Assembly (NCBI GenBank): GCA_964521535.1
Contig: CAZFSA010000003.1
Location: 1 to 61,056 of the forward strand
Source of the DNA: an uncultured Gemmatimonas sp.
GTDB lineage: Bacteria > Gemmatimonadota > Gemmatimonadetes > Gemmatimonadales > GWC2-71-9
Direction: 5' to 3'
Length of the DNA stretch: 61,056 nucleotides
A model generated the notes under the pieces. It ran no database searches. It worked only from the letters and a program-made list of their open reading frames with translations, and was not told the DNA's origin. Below, piece after piece: positions 2,854-29,067 of this stretch (its first letter is position 1; every line of letters starts with the position of its first letter). Position numbers and translations under genes: made by a program.

Positions 2854-4554
2854 TCACCCGGGCGGCAATGGCTCTCCCCCTTCCCGAAGTGCCCGCACCA
2901 TCCGGTCGTCGCCGGTCAGCTCCCAGTGGATCAGCGAGACCGGAATCATCCCCGCCGCGTTCACTTCGTCGAAGAACCGCCGCAGCGTGAACCCGTCGCC
3001 CAGCTGGCGGGCCCGCAGGGCCATCGTCTCCTCCATCAGCCGCCCCCCGGTCACGTAGCTGGCCCCGTAGCCGGGCTGCCGGAGATAGAGGTGCTGCTCG
3101 AAGCCGAGCAGGGGGTCCCGGCGCATCCAGCCCCGCGGGGTCCAGTTCACGTGGATATCGCCCGCCTGCTCCATGGTGAGATCGTTGGCATGGGCGAAGA
3201 GATTCCCGAGCCCGCGCGCGGCCCGGGTGATCAGCATGATCCACACAATCTCGCGGGAGCGCGGGCTCTCGTCGTAGAGCCCGGCGTGCATCATCCACTC
3301 CTCCATCGCCGTGGCCATGCCTTCCGACCGGCTCATCCACACGTTGTAGAGCAGCGGGCCCCGGCGGATCGGGCTCGGGTGGGGCGATACCCGAAGCCGC
3401 ATGTTGTCCCACCAGTGATACAGATGGGTCCAGAGCGGAATCGGATCCCGATGGTTGGTTTGCGAAAAGAAGTTCCTGCTCTCGGGAGGCGAGAAGCCGG
3501 GCATCCGCTCCCGGAGGGCCCGCTCCATCCAGGGCTCCATGGTGACGATACCCTGCTCTTCCATGAAGCGGAGGTAGCGCCGAATGGCCCGGTCCTGGAG
3601 CGCGGCGAACGCCTCCGGCGTTTCCGCCACCGGCAGCGGCGGCAGCGCCCGGTTGCGGTTCTCCTCCAGACGCAGCGAGGCGTGGGCCCGGGCCAGCTCC
3701 CGGCGCGTGATGGTGACCTCGTCCTCCCAGGAGAGCGGCACCAGCAGCACGTTCCGGAGGAACCAGGTGTACTGCGCCTTGCCGATGCCCGACGGACCGG
3801 TCCGCCCGGGCGACTCGTCGCGAATCCACTGCGCGAACGCGTCGGTCGCCGCGCGGGCCTCGGCGATCGCGGCCGCCAGGGTCCGATCCGCGCTTCCGGC
3901 CCGCTGGCCGAGCCGCGTCAGGGCCTGGCTCTGCTCCTCGAAGGCCCGGACTCCGCCCACCCAGAGGTCGCGAGCGGTAGCGCCGGCCAGGTTGATCCGG
4001 GCCTGGCGGAGGAGCGGCGGGATGGTGCGGAGTTCTTCCGTCAGGCGGCGGGCGGCCTCCGGCGTGAGCGGTACCGCGGTGTCGAGCGCGGTACGGGGCC
4101 AGATCGAGTACCGCCAGAGCCGGATGGCGCCGTGGATGGTGGGCCCCTCGCGGTCGGGGGTATCGCTCTCCGCGGTGAGCACCGAGGCGTAGTACGCCGG
4201 ATCGCGGGCAAAGGGCTGGAGCACCGACAGGTGGTACTGCATCCCGTTCATCTCGGCGCGGACCAGGTGGTAATCGACCTGCTCCGGGATCGACCAGCCG
4301 GTGGTGTCGATCGCGGCCAGCCGGCGCTGCCAGCGGGCCAGTTCCTCCAGTCTCCGGGCGTTGGTAGGCGGGGTGTAATCGGGGACGCCGCCCACCCGAG
4401 GCGGTTCCTCGAAGGCGCGCCAGTCGTTGAACAGCGCGACCAGGTCCGCGTGGGTCCTGGCGCCCTGACCCGCGGCCACGGCCGCCGTGCCGGCGATCAG
4501 GGCCAGGGCCAGGCCGCACGGGAGGGCGATGCGGGTCAGCGCGGCGTGAGGCAT
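2854..4554 (-). CDS. Secreted DUF885-like protein
   Basis: Signal peptide MPHAALTRIALPCGLALALIAG; EG-x-A-x-x-E region, QPGYGASY and C-terminal FTLRRFFD..AGMIP pattern; start taken at ATG 4554. Confidence 0.7.
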   Translation of the reverse strand: MPHAALTRIALPCGLALALIAGTAAVAAGQGARTHADLVALFNDWRAFEEPPRVGGVPDYTPPTNARRLEELARWQRRLAAIDTTGWSIPEQVDYHLVRAEMNGMQYHLSVLQPFARDPAYYASVLTAESDTPDREGPTIHGAIRLWRYSIWPRTALDTAVPLTPEAARRLTEELRTIPPLLRQARINLAGATARDLWVGGVRAFEEQSQALTRLGQRAGSADRTLAAAIAEARAATDAFAQWIRDESPGRTGPSGIGKAQYTWFLRNVLLVPLSWEDEVTITRRELARAHASLRLEENRNRALPPLPVAETPEAFAALQDRAIRRYLRFMEEQGIVTMEPWMERALRERMPGFSPPESRNFFSQTNHRDPIPLWTHLYHWWDNMRLRVSPHPSPIRRGPLLYNVWMSRSEGMATAMEEWMMHAGLYDESPRSREIVWIMLITRAARGLGNLFAHANDLTMEQAGDIHVNWTPRGWMRRDPLLGFEQHLYLRQPGYGASYVTGGRLMEETMALRARQLGDGFTLRRFFDEVNAAGMIPVSLIHWELTGDDRMVRALREGGEPLPPG

Positions 4555-20590: not shown

Positions 20591-20707
20591 TGCAGCTTAA
20601 TCAGAGGTTAGCCGGCGGGAGCTAACCTCCGCTGTATCAAAAAGAGTTCTGCCGTTCGCAGCGTTTTGCAGCTCTTGACCGCGCAGCTTAAGCCTTGTGC
20701 GTTATGC
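20591..20707 (+). other. Candidate attI / degenerate attC recombination-site region
   Basis: Two units GCAGCTTAA-spacer-GTTA (GTTAGCC 20607-20613; GTTATGC 20701-20707), GCTAAC at 20621-20626, and an internal AAGAG(TT)CTGC/GCAGCTCTT stem. Confidence 0.5.
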
Positions 20708-20782
20708 AGCACGGTTGGGAGAGCGGTCGTATGGCCGTTCGCGACTCGCAAGGGTCCCCAGCCGTTTTTCGTTCTCCCAGAA

Positions 20783-21589
20783 ATGTATCTCCTATATGTC
20801 GACGAATCCGGCGACACTGGCCTCAAGGGCTCTACGCATCTAATCCTCGCGGGCGCTGCTCTGTTCGAGGGCAAGTGGCGCTGGGTGCGGAACGACATCG
20901 AGGCGTTGCTTGCCAAGTTCCCGACCGCCTCAGATCGCCCAAGAGGGCTGCACGCTTCCGAAGTAAGGAAGGGGCGGGGCCCCTATAGCAAGCTCACACA
21001 GGACCAGCGTGATCAGCTCCTCAACGAAGCCTGCGCCATTCTGCGCAACCTCGGCGTCAAGGAGATCACGCTCTTCGGGATCGTCATCGACAAGCCTTGG
21101 TGGTTTGATCGCAACCCTGGTAAGACGGGCGACGAGCTCTACCTGGAGGCCTTCGAGGATCTCGTTTCCCGCTTCGACTACTACCTGCGCCGGCGACACG
21201 AAGAAGGCCAACCGGCGAAAGGGTTAATCATCGCCGACCCGCGGCACCAGTCGTTCTGTAGAGCACTGAAGAGTGCGCTTCAGCACTTCCATGCCGCCGG
21301 TACGCAATGGGCAAAGCTCCAGAACGTGATCGAGACCGTCCTGTTTCTCGAGTCCCATGAATCGCCCGTTGTTCAGCTGGCGGATCTCACCTCGTATTCC
21401 TTGTGGAGAGCGGCTGAGGCATCGGATCTGACGCTTGCAACGAAGATCAGATACCGCGTTGATCGCGAGGCGTTCGACTCCTCCTTCAATCCTGGCAAGT
21501 GGCACGGCGTTCGGTTTCGCGGGCCGAGCGTTTCCACCGTACGCGACAACCTGAACTCGCTTTGGCTGAGCAACCGGGGACATAGGTAA
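20783..21589 (+). CDS. DUF3800-family protein (integron cassette ORF; last codons replaced by the IS end)
   Basis: N-terminal YVDESG, LHASE and C-terminal VQLADL (QxxD) motifs; present stop lies inside the IS terminal repeat. Confidence 0.85.
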   Translation: MYLLYVDESGDTGLKGSTHLILAGAALFEGKWRWVRNDIEALLAKFPTASDRPRGLHASEVRKGRGPYSKLTQDQRDQLLNEACAILRNLGVKEITLFGIVIDKPWWFDRNPGKTGDELYLEAFEDLVSRFDYYLRRRHEEGQPAKGLIIADPRHQSFCRALKSALQHFHAAGTQWAKLQNVIETVLFLESHESPVVQLADLTSYSLWRAAEASDLTLATKIRYRVDREAFDSSFNPGKWHGVRFRGPSVSTVRDNLNSLWLSNRGHR

Positions 21590-22865
21590 CAGAGTTGTCC
21601 GGGAACATAGGTAACACTGGGATCAGCCTCGAATGATGTAGTCCCGCTCGTCGAGCTTGGCGAGGAGGATCGTGTTGAAGTAGATCGCCCAGATCCCGTT
21701 GGCGACCTCCTCGAGACCCACCCGATGGCCTTTCAGCGGGTTGGAGAGGAAGAGGAGCCGATGCTGGAACCGAAAGGTCCCGGCGTTGGTGATCCGCTTG
21801 ACGAGGAAGTGGCCGGGGTACTCCTGTGGGGGCAGGGTCCGCGGATACGGGCGCGGGGATGGCTGATACCGGGAGGCGGGGGTCTGGCCGTCCAGGGCGG
21901 CGTGGGGGCGGTCCTCGTTGTACTCGGTGCGGAACCGATTGAACGCCCGTTGCTGCGCGGCCGCATTCGGGCGCGGCGGTCGGATCGCGGCGCGCTTTAG
22001 GGTCCGGTGGATCCGTTCGTGGGCCCCGTTTTGCTGCGGCCGGCCAGGGTGAATCCGCTGGTGCTGAATCCCCAGCCGCCACCACCAGACGTTCAGGGTG
22101 GTGAGCCCATGCAGGCCACCGCTCGCGAAGGGGATGCCGTTGTCGGTGCGGATCGCCGTCGGGAGGCCGAACGTGCGGAAGGCCCGCTCGAAGACCGCGC
22201 GGGCGCCCATGGCCTTGGTCGAGGGCAAGGCCTGGCAGGTCAGGAGAAACCGGGTGTGCTGGTCGGCGATGGTCAGCGGGTAGCAGTAGATCCCGTCGCC
22301 GGTCGGGAACTGCCCTTTGAAGTCGGCGGTCCAGAGATCGGTGGGCGCGGTCGTGGTCGGCGGCACCACGCCGGGATGGTGGTGCGATCGGCGCCGGCGG
22401 CGCCGGGTCAGCAGGCGGTGCCGTCCCAGCAGATCGTTGACCGTGCTGACGGCCGGCCACGTCGTGCCGGGATGCCGGGGGGCCAGGTAGTCCAGCAGCT
22501 TCCCGGCGCCCCAGTCGGGGTGGGCGCGCCGGGTCTGGCAGAGCAGCTCGGCGAGGGCCCCGTCGATGCGGTGCGGACAGTGGTGCGGCGCCCGGCTCTG
22601 ATCATGGAGGCCGCGCCGCCCGCTCTCCGTGAACCGGGCCAGCCACTTGTAGCCGGTTCTCCGGCTCACGCCGTCGCGGGCACAGAGGTCCGTCATCGAG
22701 TACAGCCCCTGCTGGTAGTCGGCAATGAACGCGGTTCGTTGCTCCATCGGCGCGGTCTCCATCCAGGGCATCGGTCCGCCTCCTCTTGAGGTCGACCGTG
22801 CAGTTTAGAAGGAGTGTCACCCATGTTCCCGGACAAGCCTGTTACCTATCTACCCGGTTTGTACC
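21566..22865 (-). mobile_element. Complete IS481-family insertion sequence with about 50-bp imperfect terminal inverted repeats
   Basis: Left end ...AACCGGGGACATAGGTAACAGAGTTGTCCGGGAACATAGGTAACAC; right end reverse-complemented ...AACCGGGTAGATAGGTAACAGGCTTGTCCGGGAACATGGGTGACAC; GG(C) flanks both ends. Confidence 0.9.
21623..22771 (-). CDS. IS481-family DDE transposase
   Basis: N-terminal HTH (SRRTGYKW), WTADFKG, IRTDNG, NGAHERIHRT, YNEDRPH. Confidence 0.93.
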   Translation of the reverse strand: MPWMETAPMEQRTAFIADYQQGLYSMTDLCARDGVSRRTGYKWLARFTESGRRGLHDQSRAPHHCPHRIDGALAELLCQTRRAHPDWGAGKLLDYLAPRHPGTTWPAVSTVNDLLGRHRLLTRRRRRRSHHHPGVVPPTTTAPTDLWTADFKGQFPTGDGIYCYPLTIADQHTRFLLTCQALPSTKAMGARAVFERAFRTFGLPTAIRTDNGIPFASGGLHGLTTLNVWWWRLGIQHQRIHPGRPQQNGAHERIHRTLKRAAIRPPRPNAAAQQRAFNRFRTEYNEDRPHAALDGQTPASRYQPSPRPYPRTLPPQEYPGHFLVKRITNAGTFRFQHRLLFLSNPLKGHRVGLEEVANGIWAIYFNTILLAKLDERDYIIRG

Positions 22866-22873
22866 GGCCCGCT

Positions 22874-23010
22874 GGCTAACCAAATGTTGCAACGGCCGGG
22901 CGCTCCGAACTCCGCTTCCCAAGGCGCGGCCGCGGCTTCATGTTTTTCGGAGACCGCCGCGGCCGCGCTGCTCCATCGAGCGCCCGCCGCTGAACATTGG
23001 GTCGTTAGCT
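22874..23010 (+). other. Integron attC site
   Basis: R'' GGCTAAC (22874-22880) and R' GTTAGCT (23004-23010); arms CAAATGTTGCAACGGCCGGGCGCTC and GAGCGCCCGCCGCTGAACATTGG pair with extrahelical bases. Confidence 0.88.
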
Positions 23011-23238
23011 GGCGCGCCGCTGAAGTACCCCGCCCAGCTGCCGCGCACCAGCAGTTGGAAACCACCTGGTACCTTGGCGCTTGTGATGAGGGGACGAAGT
23101 CCCGTGACCCCTTCTCATCTCTGATGTGCGCCCGGCGCTCAGGGACGGACCCCCGGCCGCTCCTCATCTTGGCCACATTGTCCACACCGAAACCCGTTTA
23201 AGCTGTTGTTTTACAGGCATTTACGTCAATTGCAATCG

Positions 23239-23312
23239 ACAGCTCTCAGCTGTTCATCAACACAGCTCTTGACAGATAGCATAACAGCTCTATTGTTAGT
23301 CACCAACAGCTC
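23239..23312 (+). repeat. Four direct repeats ACAGCTC at 22-23 bp period
   Basis: Copies at 23239, 23262, 23284 and 23306; inverted AGCTGTT copies at 23201 and 23248. Confidence 0.85.
23269..23296 (+). promoter_or_regulatory. Sigma70-like promoter for the dndB-ATPase operon
   Basis: TTGACA (23269-23274), 16 nt, TATTGT (23291-23296); RBS GGGAGG before ATG 23360. Confidence 0.6.
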
Positions 23313-23359
23313 ATAATGCTATTGGACGGTCAGGCACCAATTAAAGCAGGGGAGGCGCA

Positions 23360-24478
23360 ATGAGAGTGTCAATCCCGGCGATTCAGGGCACAATGGGCGG
23401 TCGGCGATACTTCACCGTCTCGCTCTCGATGGCCGAAGTCCCAAGGCTGTTCCGATTCAATGACTGGGAACAATCCACCCCAGAACTCCGTGCACAGCGC
23501 GTTCTGAACAAGACGCGCGTGCCCGACATCATGAAGTACATCCTCGACAATGAGGACGGCTACCTCTTTTCGTCCATCACTGCATCCTTCTCGTGCGAGG
23601 TCAAGTTCACGCCCATCGCCGAGGGGTCAGACCTCGGTACTCTCGAACTGGAACTGGAGAACCTCGAGCTCATTATCAATGACGGTCAGCACAGGTCCGC
23701 TGCCATCGCAGCAGCTCTCAAGGAGAACCCTGCACTTGGCAAGGACCGCATCTCCGTTCTCCTATTCCCGATGGAAAACATCGAGCGCCTCCAGCAGATG
23801 TTCACGGACCTTAACCGCTACGCTCACAAGACATCGAAGTCGCTGGACATCCTCTACGACCACCGCGATAACCTCTCGGCCTTGACGATGGACGTCTCGG
23901 AGGCCGTAGAAGTATTCCGTGGCCTTCTCGACAAGGAGAAGATCACTATCCCCTTGCGCTCGGATAAGCTCTTCACGCTCTCCACGCTGTACGACGCGAA
24001 TGAAGAGTTGTTGGGCCCGAAGGTGGATAAGCGAGGCACGAAGGACTACGAGGCCAAGTTGAGTCTAGCGACCGAATACTGGACTGCCTTGTCGGGGGTC
24101 ATAACGGACTGGAAACGGGTCAAAGACGGTGACCTGAAGGCTCCCGCGCTCAGGCAGGAGAAAATCAACACGCACGCCGTTGTCATGCGCGCACTGGGCG
24201 GCGCAGGCAGGGCTCTCCTGGATGAGCATCCGTCCGACTGGAAGGCGCGATTGCAGCTCCTGGGGAAAATTGATTGGCGGAAGTCAGTAGGCGCGAAGGT
24301 CAATCCGCTGTGGGATAACGTATGCATCACGGCCGGCTCTGTCGTCTCGAACCGCCAGGCACGGGTGCAGACTCTGGCCGTGTTGAAGAAAGCGCTGGGC
24401 CTCAGCATCGCCCCGCGCGAGCAGACGCTCCTGGACCAAGTTCCCGCGAGAGCCAACAAGGCCCTCGCGCGTGCATAA
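23360..24478 (+). CDS. dndB: DndB-family / DGQHR-domain protein (ParB-like superfamily)
   Basis: RAQRVLNKTR, YLFSSITAS, INDGQHR, QQMFTDLNRYA, LYDHRD, KLFTLS. Confidence 0.88.
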   Translation: MRVSIPAIQGTMGGRRYFTVSLSMAEVPRLFRFNDWEQSTPELRAQRVLNKTRVPDIMKYILDNEDGYLFSSITASFSCEVKFTPIAEGSDLGTLELELENLELIINDGQHRSAAIAAALKENPALGKDRISVLLFPMENIERLQQMFTDLNRYAHKTSKSLDILYDHRDNLSALTMDVSEAVEVFRGLLDKEKITIPLRSDKLFTLSTLYDANEELLGPKVDKRGTKDYEAKLSLATEYWTALSGVITDWKRVKDGDLKAPALRQEKINTHAVVMRALGGAGRALLDEHPSDWKARLQLLGKIDWRKSVGAKVNPLWDNVCITAGSVVSNRQARVQTLAVLKKALGLSIAPREQTLLDQVPARANKALARA

Positions 24479-24488
24479 GGGGGGCACC

Positions 24489-26816
24489 ATGGACGACGTC
24501 ACGCTGTTCGACCGGCTTCTCCGTGCCGAGGACGAAGCGGAAGCAGACAAGATCTTGTCGCGTGCTGGGTTTGGCTTGGAGAACGAGGCTGTCTGGCATC
24601 CGCTTGGCGACATGCCGAACAATCGGTCCGTTGTCACAAACCAGCAGACAGAGCCAACGGCTGCTCTTGTTGAGAAGATCGTCAACGGCATCGACGCTCT
24701 CCTCATGGCAGAATCGCTGAGAAGGAGAATCGACCCCAAGGGCCCAACGGCGCCCGCGAGCATGGCTCGCGCGGTGCAGGAGTTCTTCGACGTCCCCGAC
24801 GGCTTGCTCGCCAACCTGACGGCCAAAGAGCAAACGGAACTCGCAAAAAAGCTCCACGTGGTCGTCGTCGGAGCGAAGGCTAATCCATCGTATCTGATCA
24901 TTGACAAGGGTGAGGGACAGCGTCCGGATAAGTTCCGTAACACATTCCTGTCGCTGATCCGGGAGAACAAGGTCGGCATCCCGTTCGTGCAAGGGAAGTA
25001 CAATTGCGGCGGGACGGGCGCGCTCCCATTCTGCGGAGAGCACAAGATGCAACTCATCGTTTCCCGGCGGCACCCGGATATCACCGACGACGGGGACAAC
25101 CCTTGGGGCTTCACAGTAGTAAGACGGCTGAAGCCCTCGGCGACGCGCCCGCTGTCCATGTACGTGTACCTCGCCCCGAACGGCAGAGTGCCCCGGTTCC
25201 AGGCGGACGCCATCAACGTGCTGCCGGAGGACCGCAGCACAGTGGCGCCGCGGCCCTATAGCATCGGCCTGCCCCATGGGACCTGCGTGAAGCTCTACAA
25301 CTTCCAGTGGAAGGGAGGGAGAGGTATCGCGACGCTCGAGGCCCGCTACGAGCTGGAGCGCTTCTTACACTCTCCGTGCCTTCCGTTCAGGTTGACTGAG
25401 ACCCGCGACTACAAGGCGAACTATTTCAGCACCACTGTGGCGGGGGTCTGGGCGACGATCGGTTCGGACGACGCCCCTGACGATGATAACGTTGAGCCTG
25501 GTTTCCCGGCCTTTGCGGACCTCGATCTCCGGGGCATCGGTCAGCTGCCTCAGCGAATCGCGGTATTCCGGGATTCCGTGAACCCAAGGCACGTGCCCCA
25601 TGGAGTGTTCTTTACGGTAAACGGTCAGGTTCACGGCAGTCTTCCGTCAGATTTCGTATCTCGTCACCTCAAGTTCGACTATCTGAAGGATCACCTTCTC
25701 GTATCGATCGACTGCACGAGCATGGACCCCAGTGTCCGCGAAGACTTCTTCATGGCCTCCCGGGATCGCGTCCGCAAGAACGATGTCTACGATAAGGTGG
25801 TGGACCAACTTAAAGAAACCCTCAAGGACCACCCTGGCCTGCGGCAGTTGAACGCCGCACGGCGCAAGAAGGAGATCGACGACACGCTCAGTGACGACGA
25901 AGAGACTAAGAACCTCTTCAGCGAGCTCTTGAAAGCAGATCCCATGCTCGCTCGGCTCTTTGGGATGGGGGACCGCTTGATCACAAGAGCGGGACCAGGT
26001 CCTGAAGTCCCCTTCGCGGGCAAGAAGTTCCCCACCTATTTCCGGCTGACCAAGAGCCCGTCCGGCGGTCTCGTGAAGGCCTGCCCAATAAACGTCACGT
26101 GTCGCGTAGAGTTTGAGACGGATGCGGTCAACGATTATTTCAGGCGGGCCGACTCACCCGGTTCCGTGACCGTCGATCCCGGCAACATCATCGAGCACTC
26201 CCACCTTTGGAACGGACGTTTCACCGCTCAGTTTCGCTGCCCCTGGGACGCGAAACCCGGTGATCGCATCGACGTGACGGTCACCGTGGCCGACGTGCAG
26301 ACCGACGCTCGCAATGCGCCGTTCGTTTCACGCTTTACGCTCGTAGCCGAACGCGAGGTGGATCCTAGACGCTCCGGAACGAACGGCGTTCGTGACCGGA
26401 CCAAGCCCGGACCACGATCGCCGGCGCCGACACTCGCGATCCCGGAACTGAAGTGGAAGTTCTACGAGGACCGCCGCGTCTCTCTCAAGGTCTCACACGA
26501 CGACCGAGGCCAGTTGGAGTATTTCGCGAATTCGAATAATGCATACCTCACGGATGCACTAGTCCGGGCCAAGGAAGAAGAGCATCCTCTCATCAAGTAT
26601 TGGTTTGGCTATGGGCTCTTGCTGTGCGCTCTTGGCATACAGAAGGAACTAGAGGACCGCTCTCATAGTGAGGGTGGGAAGGGGCAGAAGGGTGACGCTA
26701 ACGAGGGTGATCCTAACGATCTCGACCGCATCAACGTGACGTGCGACGGGCTCGCCCGAGTGATCATCCCCTTGATCCGCACACTGTATCGGGGGCCGCA
26801 GCTCGCGACGGCATAG
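24489..26816 (+). CDS. Large GHKL (Hsp90/MutL/MORC-like) ATPase-domain protein
   Basis: Bergerat-fold motifs EKIVNGID, IDKGEG, GKYNCGGTG, HGTCVKL; long uncharacterised C-terminal region; RBS before ATG 24489. Confidence 0.72.
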   Translation: MDDVTLFDRLLRAEDEAEADKILSRAGFGLENEAVWHPLGDMPNNRSVVTNQQTEPTAALVEKIVNGIDALLMAESLRRRIDPKGPTAPASMARAVQEFFDVPDGLLANLTAKEQTELAKKLHVVVVGAKANPSYLIIDKGEGQRPDKFRNTFLSLIRENKVGIPFVQGKYNCGGTGALPFCGEHKMQLIVSRRHPDITDDGDNPWGFTVVRRLKPSATRPLSMYVYLAPNGRVPRFQADAINVLPEDRSTVAPRPYSIGLPHGTCVKLYNFQWKGGRGIATLEARYELERFLHSPCLPFRLTETRDYKANYFSTTVAGVWATIGSDDAPDDDNVEPGFPAFADLDLRGIGQLPQRIAVFRDSVNPRHVPHGVFFTVNGQVHGSLPSDFVSRHLKFDYLKDHLLVSIDCTSMDPSVREDFFMASRDRVRKNDVYDKVVDQLKETLKDHPGLRQLNAARRKKEIDDTLSDDEETKNLFSELLKADPMLARLFGMGDRLITRAGPGPEVPFAGKKFPTYFRLTKSPSGGLVKACPINVTCRVEFETDAVNDYFRRADSPGSVTVDPGNIIEHSHLWNGRFTAQFRCPWDAKPGDRIDVTVTVADVQTDARNAPFVSRFTLVAEREVDPRRSGTNGVRDRTKPGPRSPAPTLAIPELKWKFYEDRRVSLKVSHDDRGQLEYFANSNNAYLTDALVRAKEEEHPLIKYWFGYGLLLCALGIQKELEDRSHSEGGKGQKGDANEGDPNDLDRINVTCDGLARVIIPLIRTLYRGPQLATA

Positions 26817-28008
26817 GCTCCGGGACAAGGCGGTACACTCGCGGGTGTCGTGGACGATGGATCAGAAGGACTTCACTCGACGCGTCCACGGCACCCTGGA
26901 GGTTCGCATACCACCGGCGATTCGGAACTCGCCGAACAAGCCGGGGCTGTGCCGATCCTCGAATCTGGACCTCCTCGAATCCGGCAGCGTCCATAGCTTC
27001 GAGATACCTAGGCAACTGTTCACCTGTGTGTCCGAATCCTACAAGTTGGACAACTGTCGCATCTGGTGCCACGAGCTGCCTCACAGACGAGAAGGCATCT
27101 ACAATCATAGCGAAATACGCGCGCTCGCCCGTCGGCGTTCTGCTCCCCCCAGTGTAGTGACTTCCGGGCTTTCCATCTCTGAGCTGCGCAATCCAGTACG
27201 GAGCCGCAGTCTCCCTGCGGCCGCGCACCTGCCAGCGGTGGTACAAGACGTGTACGCGCGGGTATGGCGGCGACGTGAACACGAGGCGCGGTCGTTCCCT
27301 GAGACCCCGCAGCCGGGCATCCTGATGGAGCCCCGCAGAACTCCGGCACAGGAGCAGCCGACGGCTAGAGATCTGGTTCTTGCTTATGCCGCCTGACCTG
27401 CAACACTCCACAAACGCTCGGAGGCCCGTCAGCATCTCCTCGGTGAGAGTCGTGAGCCTATCGAGTATGAAAGTAATAGGCGCGGCGTCGTGGTCTCGGC
27501 AGTCCACTGCCCACTGCCCGAGCCGGAGCAATACGCCGCGAGCGAAGGCTCGTTGCCGTGGGAACCGCAGGCGCGCTGTTGCGCGCAGTGCGCTTGACAT
27601 GAAGGCCGATACTCTTGGGGGTAGATTTCGCACGACCGGTTGCGCGGGGCCCGTTACGTTGGCTGCCCTAGCCACATTCCTGACCCATGTTCGGATAGCA
27701 TCCTCATCCAACGGCGAGAGTGGCGTTGTTTTCACGCACGCGACGAAGTGTGCCAGGGCATTCAGGTCAACGCCCACCACCGACCGGCCGAGTGCAAGAC
27801 CCTCAACGACAGCGGTCCCACCCCCCATGAACGGGTCCAGGATCACGTCGTTGGGGTCCGAGAACCGTTCAATGATCGTGCGCGCGATTGCGGGAGGAAA
27901 CCGGGCCGGATAAAGGTAGAAGTTGTGCGTGCTACCGGTGATGACCTTCTCCGACGCCATGGCAGCCCGAAGGCCCTCGAGCGATTGGCGGTCTAAGAGA
28001 ACACTCAT
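26764..28008 (-). CDS. DNA amino-methyltransferase (probably N4-cytosine, alpha-type motif order)
   Basis: THNFYLYPARF, motif I ILDPFMGGGT, motif IV VFTSPPY. Confidence 0.88.
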   Translation of the reverse strand: MSVLLDRQSLEGLRAAMASEKVITGSTHNFYLYPARFPPAIARTIIERFSDPNDVILDPFMGGGTAVVEGLALGRSVVGVDLNALAHFVACVKTTPLSPLDEDAIRTWVRNVARAANVTGPAQPVVRNLPPRVSAFMSSALRATARLRFPRQRAFARGVLLRLGQWAVDCRDHDAAPITFILDRLTTLTEEMLTGLRAFVECCRSGGISKNQISSRRLLLCRSSAGLHQDARLRGLRERPRLVFTSPPYPRVHVLYHRWQVRGRRETAAPYWIAQLRDGKPGSHYTGGSRTPTGERAYFAMIVDAFSSVRQLVAPDATVVQLVGFGHTGEQLPRYLEAMDAAGFEEVQIRGSAQPRLVRRVPNRRWYANLQGAVDASSEVLLIHRPRHPRVYRLVPEPMPSRAAAPDTVCGSRG

Positions 28009-28199
28009 CGCTCGCGCTCCGCCCGCTGGTCAGCAGCCTGTAGCCCAACCAACCTGAGCCACGTCGAGACGCCCAAGCCCGCCCTGCGGGCGGCGCGGCT
28101 CAACTTCTCCTTCTCATCGCTGGTAACCCGCACACGTATCTGGCTCTCCTTCCGGTCTTCACTTGACTTCGTGGCCGACTTGCCAAGTCTGGGGAGCAT
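28005..28199 (-). CDS. Small ribbon-helix-helix regulator (MobC/DUF1778-like), translationally coupled to the MTase
   Basis: KESQIRVRVTSDEKEKLSRAARRAGLGVSTWLR; ATGA overlap at 28005-28008. Confidence 0.8.
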   Translation of the reverse strand: MLPRLGKSATKSSEDRKESQIRVRVTSDEKEKLSRAARRAGLGVSTWLRLVGLQAADQRAERER

Positions 28200-28204
28200 A
28201 GCCT

Positions 28205-28233
28205 ACATTAGTGCCACATTGTGGCCATGTCAA
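28205..28233 (-). promoter_or_regulatory. Sigma70 promoter with palindromic operator in the spacer
   Basis: Minus strand TTGACA-tgGCCACAATGTGGCac (17-nt spacer containing the palindrome)-TAATGT, 5 nt before ATG 28199. Confidence 0.75.
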
Positions 28234-28249
28234 ATACACTTCGCGAAGG

Positions 28250-28690
28250 GCTGAACAGCCGGGAACATAGCTGACAGAGTGTCCGGGGACATGGTTAACA
28301 CTTCTCCTCCTTGCGGAAGGGGCCCCCGGTGATGAGGTGGGTGCGTTCGTCGAAGCGCCCAGGAGGGTCTCGTAGTAGCCGACGTTCCAGAGGTTGTCGG
28401 CGATCTCCTCGAAGCCAACATACTCGTGATTGAGGCCGGACTCAGGAAGTGCTGGCCGGAGTGCAGGCGGAAGGTGGCTGCCCGGCGTGATGCGCGGGTG
28501 GACAATGCCGAGCTGGAGCCACCAGACCTTGGGGCGGTTGAGGCCGTGGATGCCGGTGGACGCGAAGGGCGCGCCGTTGTCGCTGTGGATCGCCTCGGGA
28601 AGGCCACAGCGGGTGCAGAGTTCGGTCATGGTCCAGGCCCCACTGGCGCAGTCCTGGGCGAAAGGCTGGCGTTTGGCTGCATGGTTGGAG
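28250..28690 (-). mobile_element. Internally deleted remnant of a related IS481-family element
   Basis: Terminal repeat CTGAACAGCCGGGAACATAGCTGACAGAGTGTCCGGGGACATGGTTAACAC resembles 21566-21617; fragments MTELCTRCGLPEAIHSDNGAPFAS, WWLQLGIVH, VGFEEIADNLW. Confidence 0.85.
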
Positions 28691-28716
28691 ACAGCGAGGC
28701 CGAACGAGGGACGACG

Positions 28717-29067
28717 GTGGAACAAGCCATACCAAACCTACCGGCGGATGACCTGCAGATGGCAAAGGCCTTCTGCGTCGGCAAGCTCGGGTTCAGCGTC
28801 ACGTACGAGGGACGGAGAACGGCGCGATCGGGTTGATCGGGTTCGCGACGCGGCGGGTTCGTCCTGCACTTGGATGCTCCGATGAGCGGGCACGGCCGTA
28901 ACGTGGTCGTGACGCTCGAGGTTGATGACGCGGATGCCCTCTACGACCAGTGGCGCCGGCAGGTTGAGATCGAGAGATCGCCGAGGAATGAGGATTGGGG
29001 AGGACGCACGTTCGGCGTCACCGATCCGTTCGGCAACCTGCTCTTTGTCGTTGGACCCGTCAAGTAG
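28717..29067 (+). pseudogene. VOC/glyoxalase (bleomycin-resistance-like) gene, frameshifted
   Basis: AIPNLPADDLQMAKAF..KLGF, then after frameshifts LEVDDADALY...EDWGGRTFGVTDPFGNLL. Confidence 0.8.

Follow-up and report, generated by a model that had tools for sequence, protein, structure and literature searches.

A DndB gene without DndC

Which protein reads the row of short ACAGCTC repeats ahead of a dndB-family gene in an uncultured Gemmatimonas sp., and to what end? In the window (the whole 61,056-nt stretch of DNA analysed), the gene that follows the row (23360–24478, plus strand) encodes a 372-aa DndB-family protein, a DGQHR-type ParB-like NTPase and the candidate reader of the array, which scored 349.5 bits with PF14072 (E 2.4e-104; cut-off 29.1), 337.9 with TIGR03233 (cut-off 328) and 363.7 with the PADLOC DndB profile. 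It is not part of a dnd operon, a point on which the original prediction needs correcting: the order dndB followed by dndC, dndD and dndE is not found at this locus, DndC (TIGR03183) had no match in the 96.1%-complete genome, and the next gene encodes a 781-aa protein without a family match. DndC is also absent from the genomes carrying two related loci, L003 and L022.

The start of the gene for this 781-aa partner (24471–26816, plus strand) overlaps the end of dndB, and the two genes therefore share an operon. Searches of the partner against Pfam, NCBIfam, PADLOC and PDB chains returned no match, and Pfam searches with eight partner homologues at E values up to 1 returned nothing. Since its AlphaFold model (mean pLDDT 45.7) was too poor for a structure search, the suggestion that the partner could be a GHKL-type ATPase—only a lead at this stage—rests on an Atlas hit (two clusters near the partner have HATPase_c_3 in 30% and 26% of their members) together with the invariant residues E68, N72 and D75, D145, G147 and G149, and G180, G181 and G183, which we take to correspond to GHKL motifs.

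Convergent on the partner lies an N6_N4_Mtase DNA methyltransferase gene (26764–28008, minus strand), which is a member of the conserved cassette but not of the array; it is preceded by a 64-aa NikA-like ribbon-helix-helix (RHH) gene (28005–28199, minus strand; PF21983, E 6.2e-10). Of the 80 loci with DndB relatives that were compared, 14 have DndB together with the partner, among them loci of Methylomirabilota, Acidobacteriota and Chloroflexota; a methylase was detected in 10 of these 14, some of which end early at a contig boundary. The DndB/781-aa/methylase cassette may be an undescribed restriction-modification-like system. Its GC content is below that of its flanks, as expected for imported DNA. 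To its left, an IS481-family element (21572–22859; 382-aa transposase, 47-nt inverted repeats that are 87% complementary) ends 340 bp before the array and adjoins a gene for a DUF3800 protein (20666–21589); to its right lies a decayed, integrase-core-like ORF fragment (about 28300–28750).

Four phased sites interleave with the dndB promoter

Direct reading of the plus strand bore out both the predicted positions of the ACAGCTC copies (23239, 23262, 23284 and 23306) and their spacings of 23, 22 and 22 bp. A promoter scan of 22860–23420 returned a single sigma-70-like site, in which a TTGACA hexamer (23269–23274) and a TATTGT hexamer (23291–23296) are parted by 16 nt, with 10 of 12 positions matched. 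It also upheld the claim that two copies directly abut these boxes: the −35 and −10 hexamers begin exactly where copies 2 and 3 end. Site 1 (23239–23245; core CAGCTC) is centred ~61 bp 5′ of the predicted transcription start, site 2 (23262–23268) abuts the −35 hexamer, site 3 (23284–23290) lies within the promoter spacer and abuts the −10 hexamer, and site 4 (23306–23312) covers the predicted start and the early leader. If transcription starts ~7 nt after the −10 hexamer, as the promoter sequence suggests, the cores would be centred near −61, −38, −16 and +6. Relative to the DndB ATG at 23360 they stand at −117, −94, −72 and −50, with a GGGGAGG ribosome-binding site (23349–23355) just before the ATG. 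The array region forms an AT-rich dip, with a GC content of 0.475–0.525 compared with 0.6–0.75 in the surrounding stretch.

Two other elements of the predicted architecture held only in part. The inverted AGCTGTT copies are indeed present on the plus strand, at 23248–23254 (7 bp from site 1) and 23201–23207 (40 bp from site 1), but both fall outside the 22-bp register and are not conserved in relatives; the more distant one is probably no part of the operator. Doublets 6–9 bp apart that resemble site 1 and the 23248 copy also occur in L003, L005 and L022. As to the proposed placement of all sites on one face of the helix, a step of 22 bp amounts to ~2.1 helical turns (about 75 Å), slightly more than two, and successive sites therefore drift by roughly 34 degrees; the phasing is real, but "same face" is an approximation. 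The register positions flanking the array (centres at about 23220 and about 23331) carry no recognisable site, and a copy close to the ribosome-binding site, present in most relatives, is absent from the window array.

Several measures set this arrangement apart from background. ACAGCTC occurs 14 times in the window against 6.9 expected, with four copies inside 74 bp and ten outside the array. In 200 dinucleotide shuffles of the 200 bp upstream, no 6-mer ever formed a row of four at 20–24-bp steps (0/200). When the 4,492,829-base genome was scanned for three SAGCTS sites (S = C or G) at 22-bp steps, a single place matched, namely this array, and the reversed control pattern matched nowhere in the same genome. 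Tandem Repeats Finder reported no tandem repeat in the array region because only the 6–7-bp core repeats and the 22-bp unit does not; conservation of the whole 22-bp unit between copies, the hallmark of iterons and tandem repeats, is not seen here. An Rfam scan of 22800–23500 found nothing relevant, its one row being a chance-level snoRNA (E 0.51).

Core and register are conserved upstream of DndB relatives

The original prediction had called for a motif search upstream of DndB homologues, and this search was positive: the same place and the same spacing recur across phyla. In the 80 loci fetched for comparison, relatives carry CAGCTC, GAGCTG or GAGCTC copies at 22-bp steps, one of them abutting TTGACA. 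In addition to the window, 17 of the 79 relatives' loci tested gave 0/200 in the shuffle test, and 15 of these 17 chains have an AGCT core, the others being built on CCGCTC (L016) and ACTTCC (L065).

To describe the unit, we surveyed in-register sites by requiring AGCT alone, which yielded 141 sites at 31 loci (three loci contributed one site each). Every one of the 141 is flanked by C or G on both sides, although these flanks were not imposed, and the sites divide into 55 CAGCTC, 40 GAGCTG, 40 GAGCTC and 6 CAGCTG. Among 102 single steps, 90 measure 22 bp, 3 measure 21 bp and 9 measure 23 bp, and there are 8 double steps besides. Given the C/G on both flanks and the mixture of hexamer types, the conserved unit at the level of sequence is a near-palindromic hexamer, SAGCTS, in either orientation and 22 bp from centre to centre. 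Of the motif first proposed, the AGCT core and the 22-bp phasing therefore stand, but ACAGCTC as a directional heptamer does not.

The junction with the promoter is shared as well. The string AGCTSTTGAC, present in the window as CAGCTC-TTGACA at 23263–23274, was found in 14 of the 31 array loci. An alignment of seven upstream regions, with a mean column identity of 46%, has as its invariant columns the four AGCT cores (that of site 1 included), the −35 junction (CTT and the C of TTGACA, so that AGCTCTT is invariant at site 2), the spacer columns C66 and G137, and the ATG. For assigning arrays to a class we required at least three cores at 21–23-bp steps, conservation of the core only, and a position within 175 bp upstream of the operon start; the window array, with four cores, unconserved spacers and one core abutting the −35 hexamer, belongs to this class.

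Chains of at least three sites number 19 in the 710,299 bp made up by the window and the 80 loci, and all 19 lie 17–173 bp upstream of a DndB start. None was found elsewhere in these 710,299 bp, including before genes downstream of DndB. Direct control of far-off cargo genes is therefore not supported, there being no second array before them.

A scan made without reference to genes leads back to DndB

We also scanned species-representative genomes for four SAGCTS sites at 22-bp steps, irrespective of gene content, and at least 120 loci matched. Among the matches listed, 113 are ordinary tandem repeats with a non-core identity of at least 0.45 (mostly 0.6–1.0), and seven are arrays conserved in the core only, with a non-core identity of 0.24–0.34. 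All seven core-only arrays among the matches listed adjoin a DndB gene, one of them being the L002 contig again. For 40 of the 120 listed loci the flanks comprised 300 bp only, and none of these 40 is a core-only array.

Many of the 22-bp tandem repeats come from gut Bacteroidales (Prevotella, Segatella and other Bacteroidales loci, among them L083, L084, L091 and L097–L099). They are built on a CAGCTG palindrome between conserved flanking sequences (as in tgtCAGCTGaca) and are unrelated to DndB.

DndB is the gene family common to array loci

When the ORFs around 24 array loci were compared all against all, DndB emerged as the one genuine gene family that every one of the 24 possesses; the remaining large clusters proved to be DndB and partner sequences read in alternative frames. 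What follows DndB varies, the genes encoding TIR, TIR plus caspase, Schlafen/AlbA_2 or several proteins without a known family. Neighbours of the SNF2-helicase, PLD-helicase and methylase kinds turned up only at clade members for which no array was detected. In a quick maximum-likelihood tree of 81 DndB rows (L018 was left out), all 24 rows with an AGCT chain fall in one clade of 37 rows with a support of 99.

The other 13 rows of this clade lack a chain of three exact cores. In L011–L013 the 22-bp register persists but the cores are degenerate (CAGGTC and AGGGCT, for example), L010 and L016 have variant cores, and no array was found upstream of DndB in L015, L028, L034, L042 and L048. At L007 (region 3510–3950), the phased array precedes a 97-aa ORF without a known family that is inserted ahead of DndB, which places the array with the operon promoter and not with the DndB start as such; the coding sequence directly upstream of DndB at L006 and L018 is the same as at L007.

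As a side observation, DndB genes of the clade (L010, L021, L022 and others) have TIR, TIR plus caspase, Schlafen/AlbA_2, SNF2, PLD-helicase or methylase genes as neighbours, never dndC. These neighbours are often 80–370 bp away, without a second array.

What was observed directly is the array itself, with its register, its conservation and its restriction to the promoters of DndB operons. Neither the RHH protein nor the methylase nor the 781-aa partner is shared by the array loci, which makes all three poor candidates for the reader, and a host factor is unlikely in that role because the loci span so many phyla. With DndB as the sole family common to them, the best reading is autorepression by DndB from a promoter-spanning array: the four sites are probably the operator of an autorepressed promoter of dndB and the 781-aa gene, with DndB as the presumed binder. 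The predicted operator array for this DndB is in this sense upheld, on comparative grounds, as a conserved operator-like element tied to DndB; binding and cooperativity enter it by inference.

A predicted ParB-like dimer and the alternatives to the proposed DndB operator

We modelled DndB with AlphaFold from an alignment of 32 sequences (mean pLDDT 86), in all of which the DGQHR motif (D108, G109, Q110, H111 and R112) is invariant. Residues 12–169 of the model align to the ParB-N domain of pNOB8 over 109 residues (Z 7.7, rmsd 3.1), and the other fold matches of the N-terminal part are PadC (Z 7.2), KorB (Z 5.8) and sulfiredoxin (Z 5.2). The C-terminal half, which is helical and presumed to read the DNA, gave no clear match (best Z 5.1), neither to a helix-turn-helix nor to another recognisable DNA-binding fold. 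Foldseek linked the model to the PDB only weakly, through ParB rows that all fell short of E 0.001, and the DndB sequence had no useful match among PDB chains. A homodimer prediction scored 0.70 against 0.00 for the best control, a mark reached by 20 of 30 proteins solved as one-chain pairs and by 1 of 23 solved as single chains. The dimer runs agreed in at least 57% of contacts with a partner pLDDT of at least 78; they used a custom alignment, and likeness to solved ParB-type dimers may contribute to the result. The predicted interface is symmetric and lies within residues 6–155, the DGQHR region included, and the models thus support dimerisation of DndB through its N-terminal domain.

Such a protein could also use the array as a ParB- or KorB-like loading site, from which nucleotide-locked DndB clamps would slide or spread, promoter occlusion then playing only a partial role. 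The ParB fold of the N-terminal domain points this way, as do KorB, a ParB-family repressor, among its matches and the predicted dimer through residues 6–155. A DndB-like protein moreover binds ATP and GTP, according to a preprint (10.1101/2025.10.10.680097). The DNA itself offers less: the sites are 6-bp cores and not palindromes of 13–16 bp or the ~16 bp of a parS site, the genome holds a single array, no ParA-type partner is found among the genes annotated around it, and nothing in the sequence favours spreading. We thus consider loading and spreading unlikely; this element of the original prediction found no support beyond the fold.

Considerably less probable is an epigenetic switch, in which the AGCT cores would be targets of the cassette methyltransferase and the array would couple modification state to expression. 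The methylase is conserved in the cassette, and in Streptomyces lividans modification sites near dndB affect its expression (PMC6186775). However, AGCT arrays of the same kind precede DndB genes whose surroundings, as far as compared, contain TIR, caspase or Schlafen-type genes, for example, and no methylase, and ACAGCTC is not depleted outside the array (10 copies in the window, with 6.9 expected). Methylation would also fail to account for the rigid 22-bp spacing and for sites that interleave with the promoter.

We give marginally less weight again to the idea that the NikA-like RHH protein, which the original prediction named as a second possible binder, or another small regulator of the cassette reads the array. 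Arrays of short repeats are common targets of RHH proteins, and an RHH gene sits in the same cassette. Yet of nine further loci with a methylase that were inspected, L003 alone has an intact RHH gene, and in L002 and L004 the gene has decayed; L006, L007, L008 and L018 have a different small protein in its stead, and L005 and L014 have none, with arrays nevertheless present among these loci. Arrays also occur at loci without a methylase within the stretch compared. The RHH gene, furthermore, has a promoter with a different palindrome of its own: the RHH-methylase promoter (28205–28233, minus strand) consists of TTGACA, 17 nt and TAATGT, and its spacer is the palindrome-like TGGCCACAATGTGGCAC. 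The promoter element ATGTGGCAC is kept in L002 and L003, and the window has one further copy of the 10-mer GCCACATTGT, at 23172–23181, 60 bp upstream of the DndB array, so that a putative RHH operator may lie at both cassette edges.

Finally, a chance repeat or a decaying tandem duplication without function has a practically negligible probability: short repeats are common in AT-rich intergenic DNA, but the shuffles, the single occurrence in 4.49 Mb and the silence of Tandem Repeats Finder speak against it, as do cores that stay invariant across phyla while their spacers diverge.

Upstream motifs of other DndB clades, and related systems

Phased sites are not confined to the AGCT clade. At three Actinobacterial dndBCDE promoters (L066, L067 and L069), three to four GTAC(G) cores stand at 22-bp steps upstream of DndB, one copy abutting TTGACA in two of the three (L067 and L069); phased GTACGTAC sites before another DndB gene agree with this pattern. 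The layout equals that of the window array, whereas the core is GTAC(G) there and AGCT here, and only there does dndC follow (it lies directly downstream of DndB in L066, L067 and L069). That the 22-bp step is kept while the core changes between clades suggests a fixed protein–protein spacing. Cyanobacterial and Firmicutes DndB groups, and one of Bacteroidota type, have motifs of their own at 21–22 bp, mostly in two copies. Variation of the motif along with the DndB clade is in keeping with DndB as the reader.

A 22-bp layout universal to DndB was considered and rejected. At an E. coli dndBCDE locus (L202 2280–2395, upstream of dndB), which shows the layout of the enterobacterial operator, TTACGTAA-type copies are 31 and 12 bp apart and the same region has two GTAC copies 16 bp apart; in two DndB subclades, of seven and four loci, no shared upstream motif was found.

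The precedent for a DndB operator comes from Salmonella enterica Cerro 87, whose DndB (DptB) binds its own dndBCDE promoter in footprinting and EMSA and protects two regions that each contain TACG-N10-CGTA (He et al. 2015, PMC4507180). That operator is like the present one in the protein family involved, in the placement on its own promoter, in having several short sites with a palindromic 4-bp core, and in repression. It differs in comprising two TACG-N10-CGTA boxes, whereas the window type has four to eight SAGCTS sites at 22 bp that interleave with the −35 and −10 hexamers, and no dndCDE. By direct reading, 23199–23360 of the window contains a single TACG, and no CGTA follows it at a distance of 10 nt. 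The footprinted enterobacterial operator therefore serves as precedent for the DndB family and not for the 22-bp architecture.

Two further groups of systems invite comparison. KorB of plasmid RK2 and Noc, which regulate by binding DNA in a CTP-dependent manner, share the ParB-type N-terminal fold with DndB, and ParB-type proteins have been put to use as transcriptional repressors. KorB and Noc recognise palindromes of 13–16 bp through a helix-turn-helix domain and slide after loading; the C-terminal part of DndB, by contrast, is a different helical domain, and its sites are 6-bp cores in a phased row. In the centromere-operator arrays of type Ib and type II partition loci (such as parC-ParR of R1 and the omega heptads of pSM19035), a row of repeats spans the promoter of the binder's own gene and is coated cooperatively. 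There, the repeats are contiguous units of 7–11 bp, bound by RHH proteins and serving segregation, while the cores in the window are parted by 16 unconserved bases and belong to a chromosomal defence-type cassette.

A model of DndB autorepression and its implications

For the preferred reading of the array as a DndB operator, we infer the following course of events. DndB, a ParB-fold NTPase with a predicted N-terminal dimer, would bind the near-palindromic (C/G)AGCT(C/G) cores, and neighbouring units at the fixed 22-bp pitch would probably touch along roughly one side of the helix. The bound units would occupy the sequence flanking the −35 hexamer, the spacer together with the −10 hexamer, and the start site, so that RNA polymerase would be shut out of the dndB/781-aa operon. 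By analogy with Salmonella DndB, binding of a nucleotide would probably loosen the complex; ATP control of DndB is said to have been described by Xia and colleagues in 2019 in Mol Microbiol.

Autoregulation by DndB is already known; the architecture of this operator, its breadth and the partners outside dnd are not known to have been described. A literature search, conducted largely outside subscription journals, turned up neither an account of phased AGCT arrays at promoters of DndB genes nor one of a DndB clade that lacks dnd genes and has such an operator. So far DndB has been known as a repressor of phosphorothioation operons, on the strength of one Salmonella footprint. A large, horizontally spread clade of DndB proteins without dnd genes carries a rigid, readily recognised putative operator, SAGCTS every 22 bp in the promoter, and for this clade the array provides a testable binding motif and geometry. 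The array is also a sequence signature for finding such cassettes, as the seven of seven core-only arrays beside DndB among the matches listed illustrate, and it points to unexplored partners of DndB, including the DndB/781-aa/methylase cassette, whose partner protein is unmatched in PADLOC.

A more far-reaching and rather doubtful proposal is that array and DndB together form a portable, nucleotide-gated switch. The phased dimers would build a higher-order assembly over the promoter that disassembles once infection alters the nucleotide pool or the DNA, and this would free cassettes unconnected with phosphorothioation. The cargo would be, here, a 781-aa possible GHKL ATPase beside a methylase and, elsewhere, TIR, caspase and Schlafen-type genes. 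If this were true, a large clade of DndB proteins would act as the sensor-regulators of undescribed defence systems.
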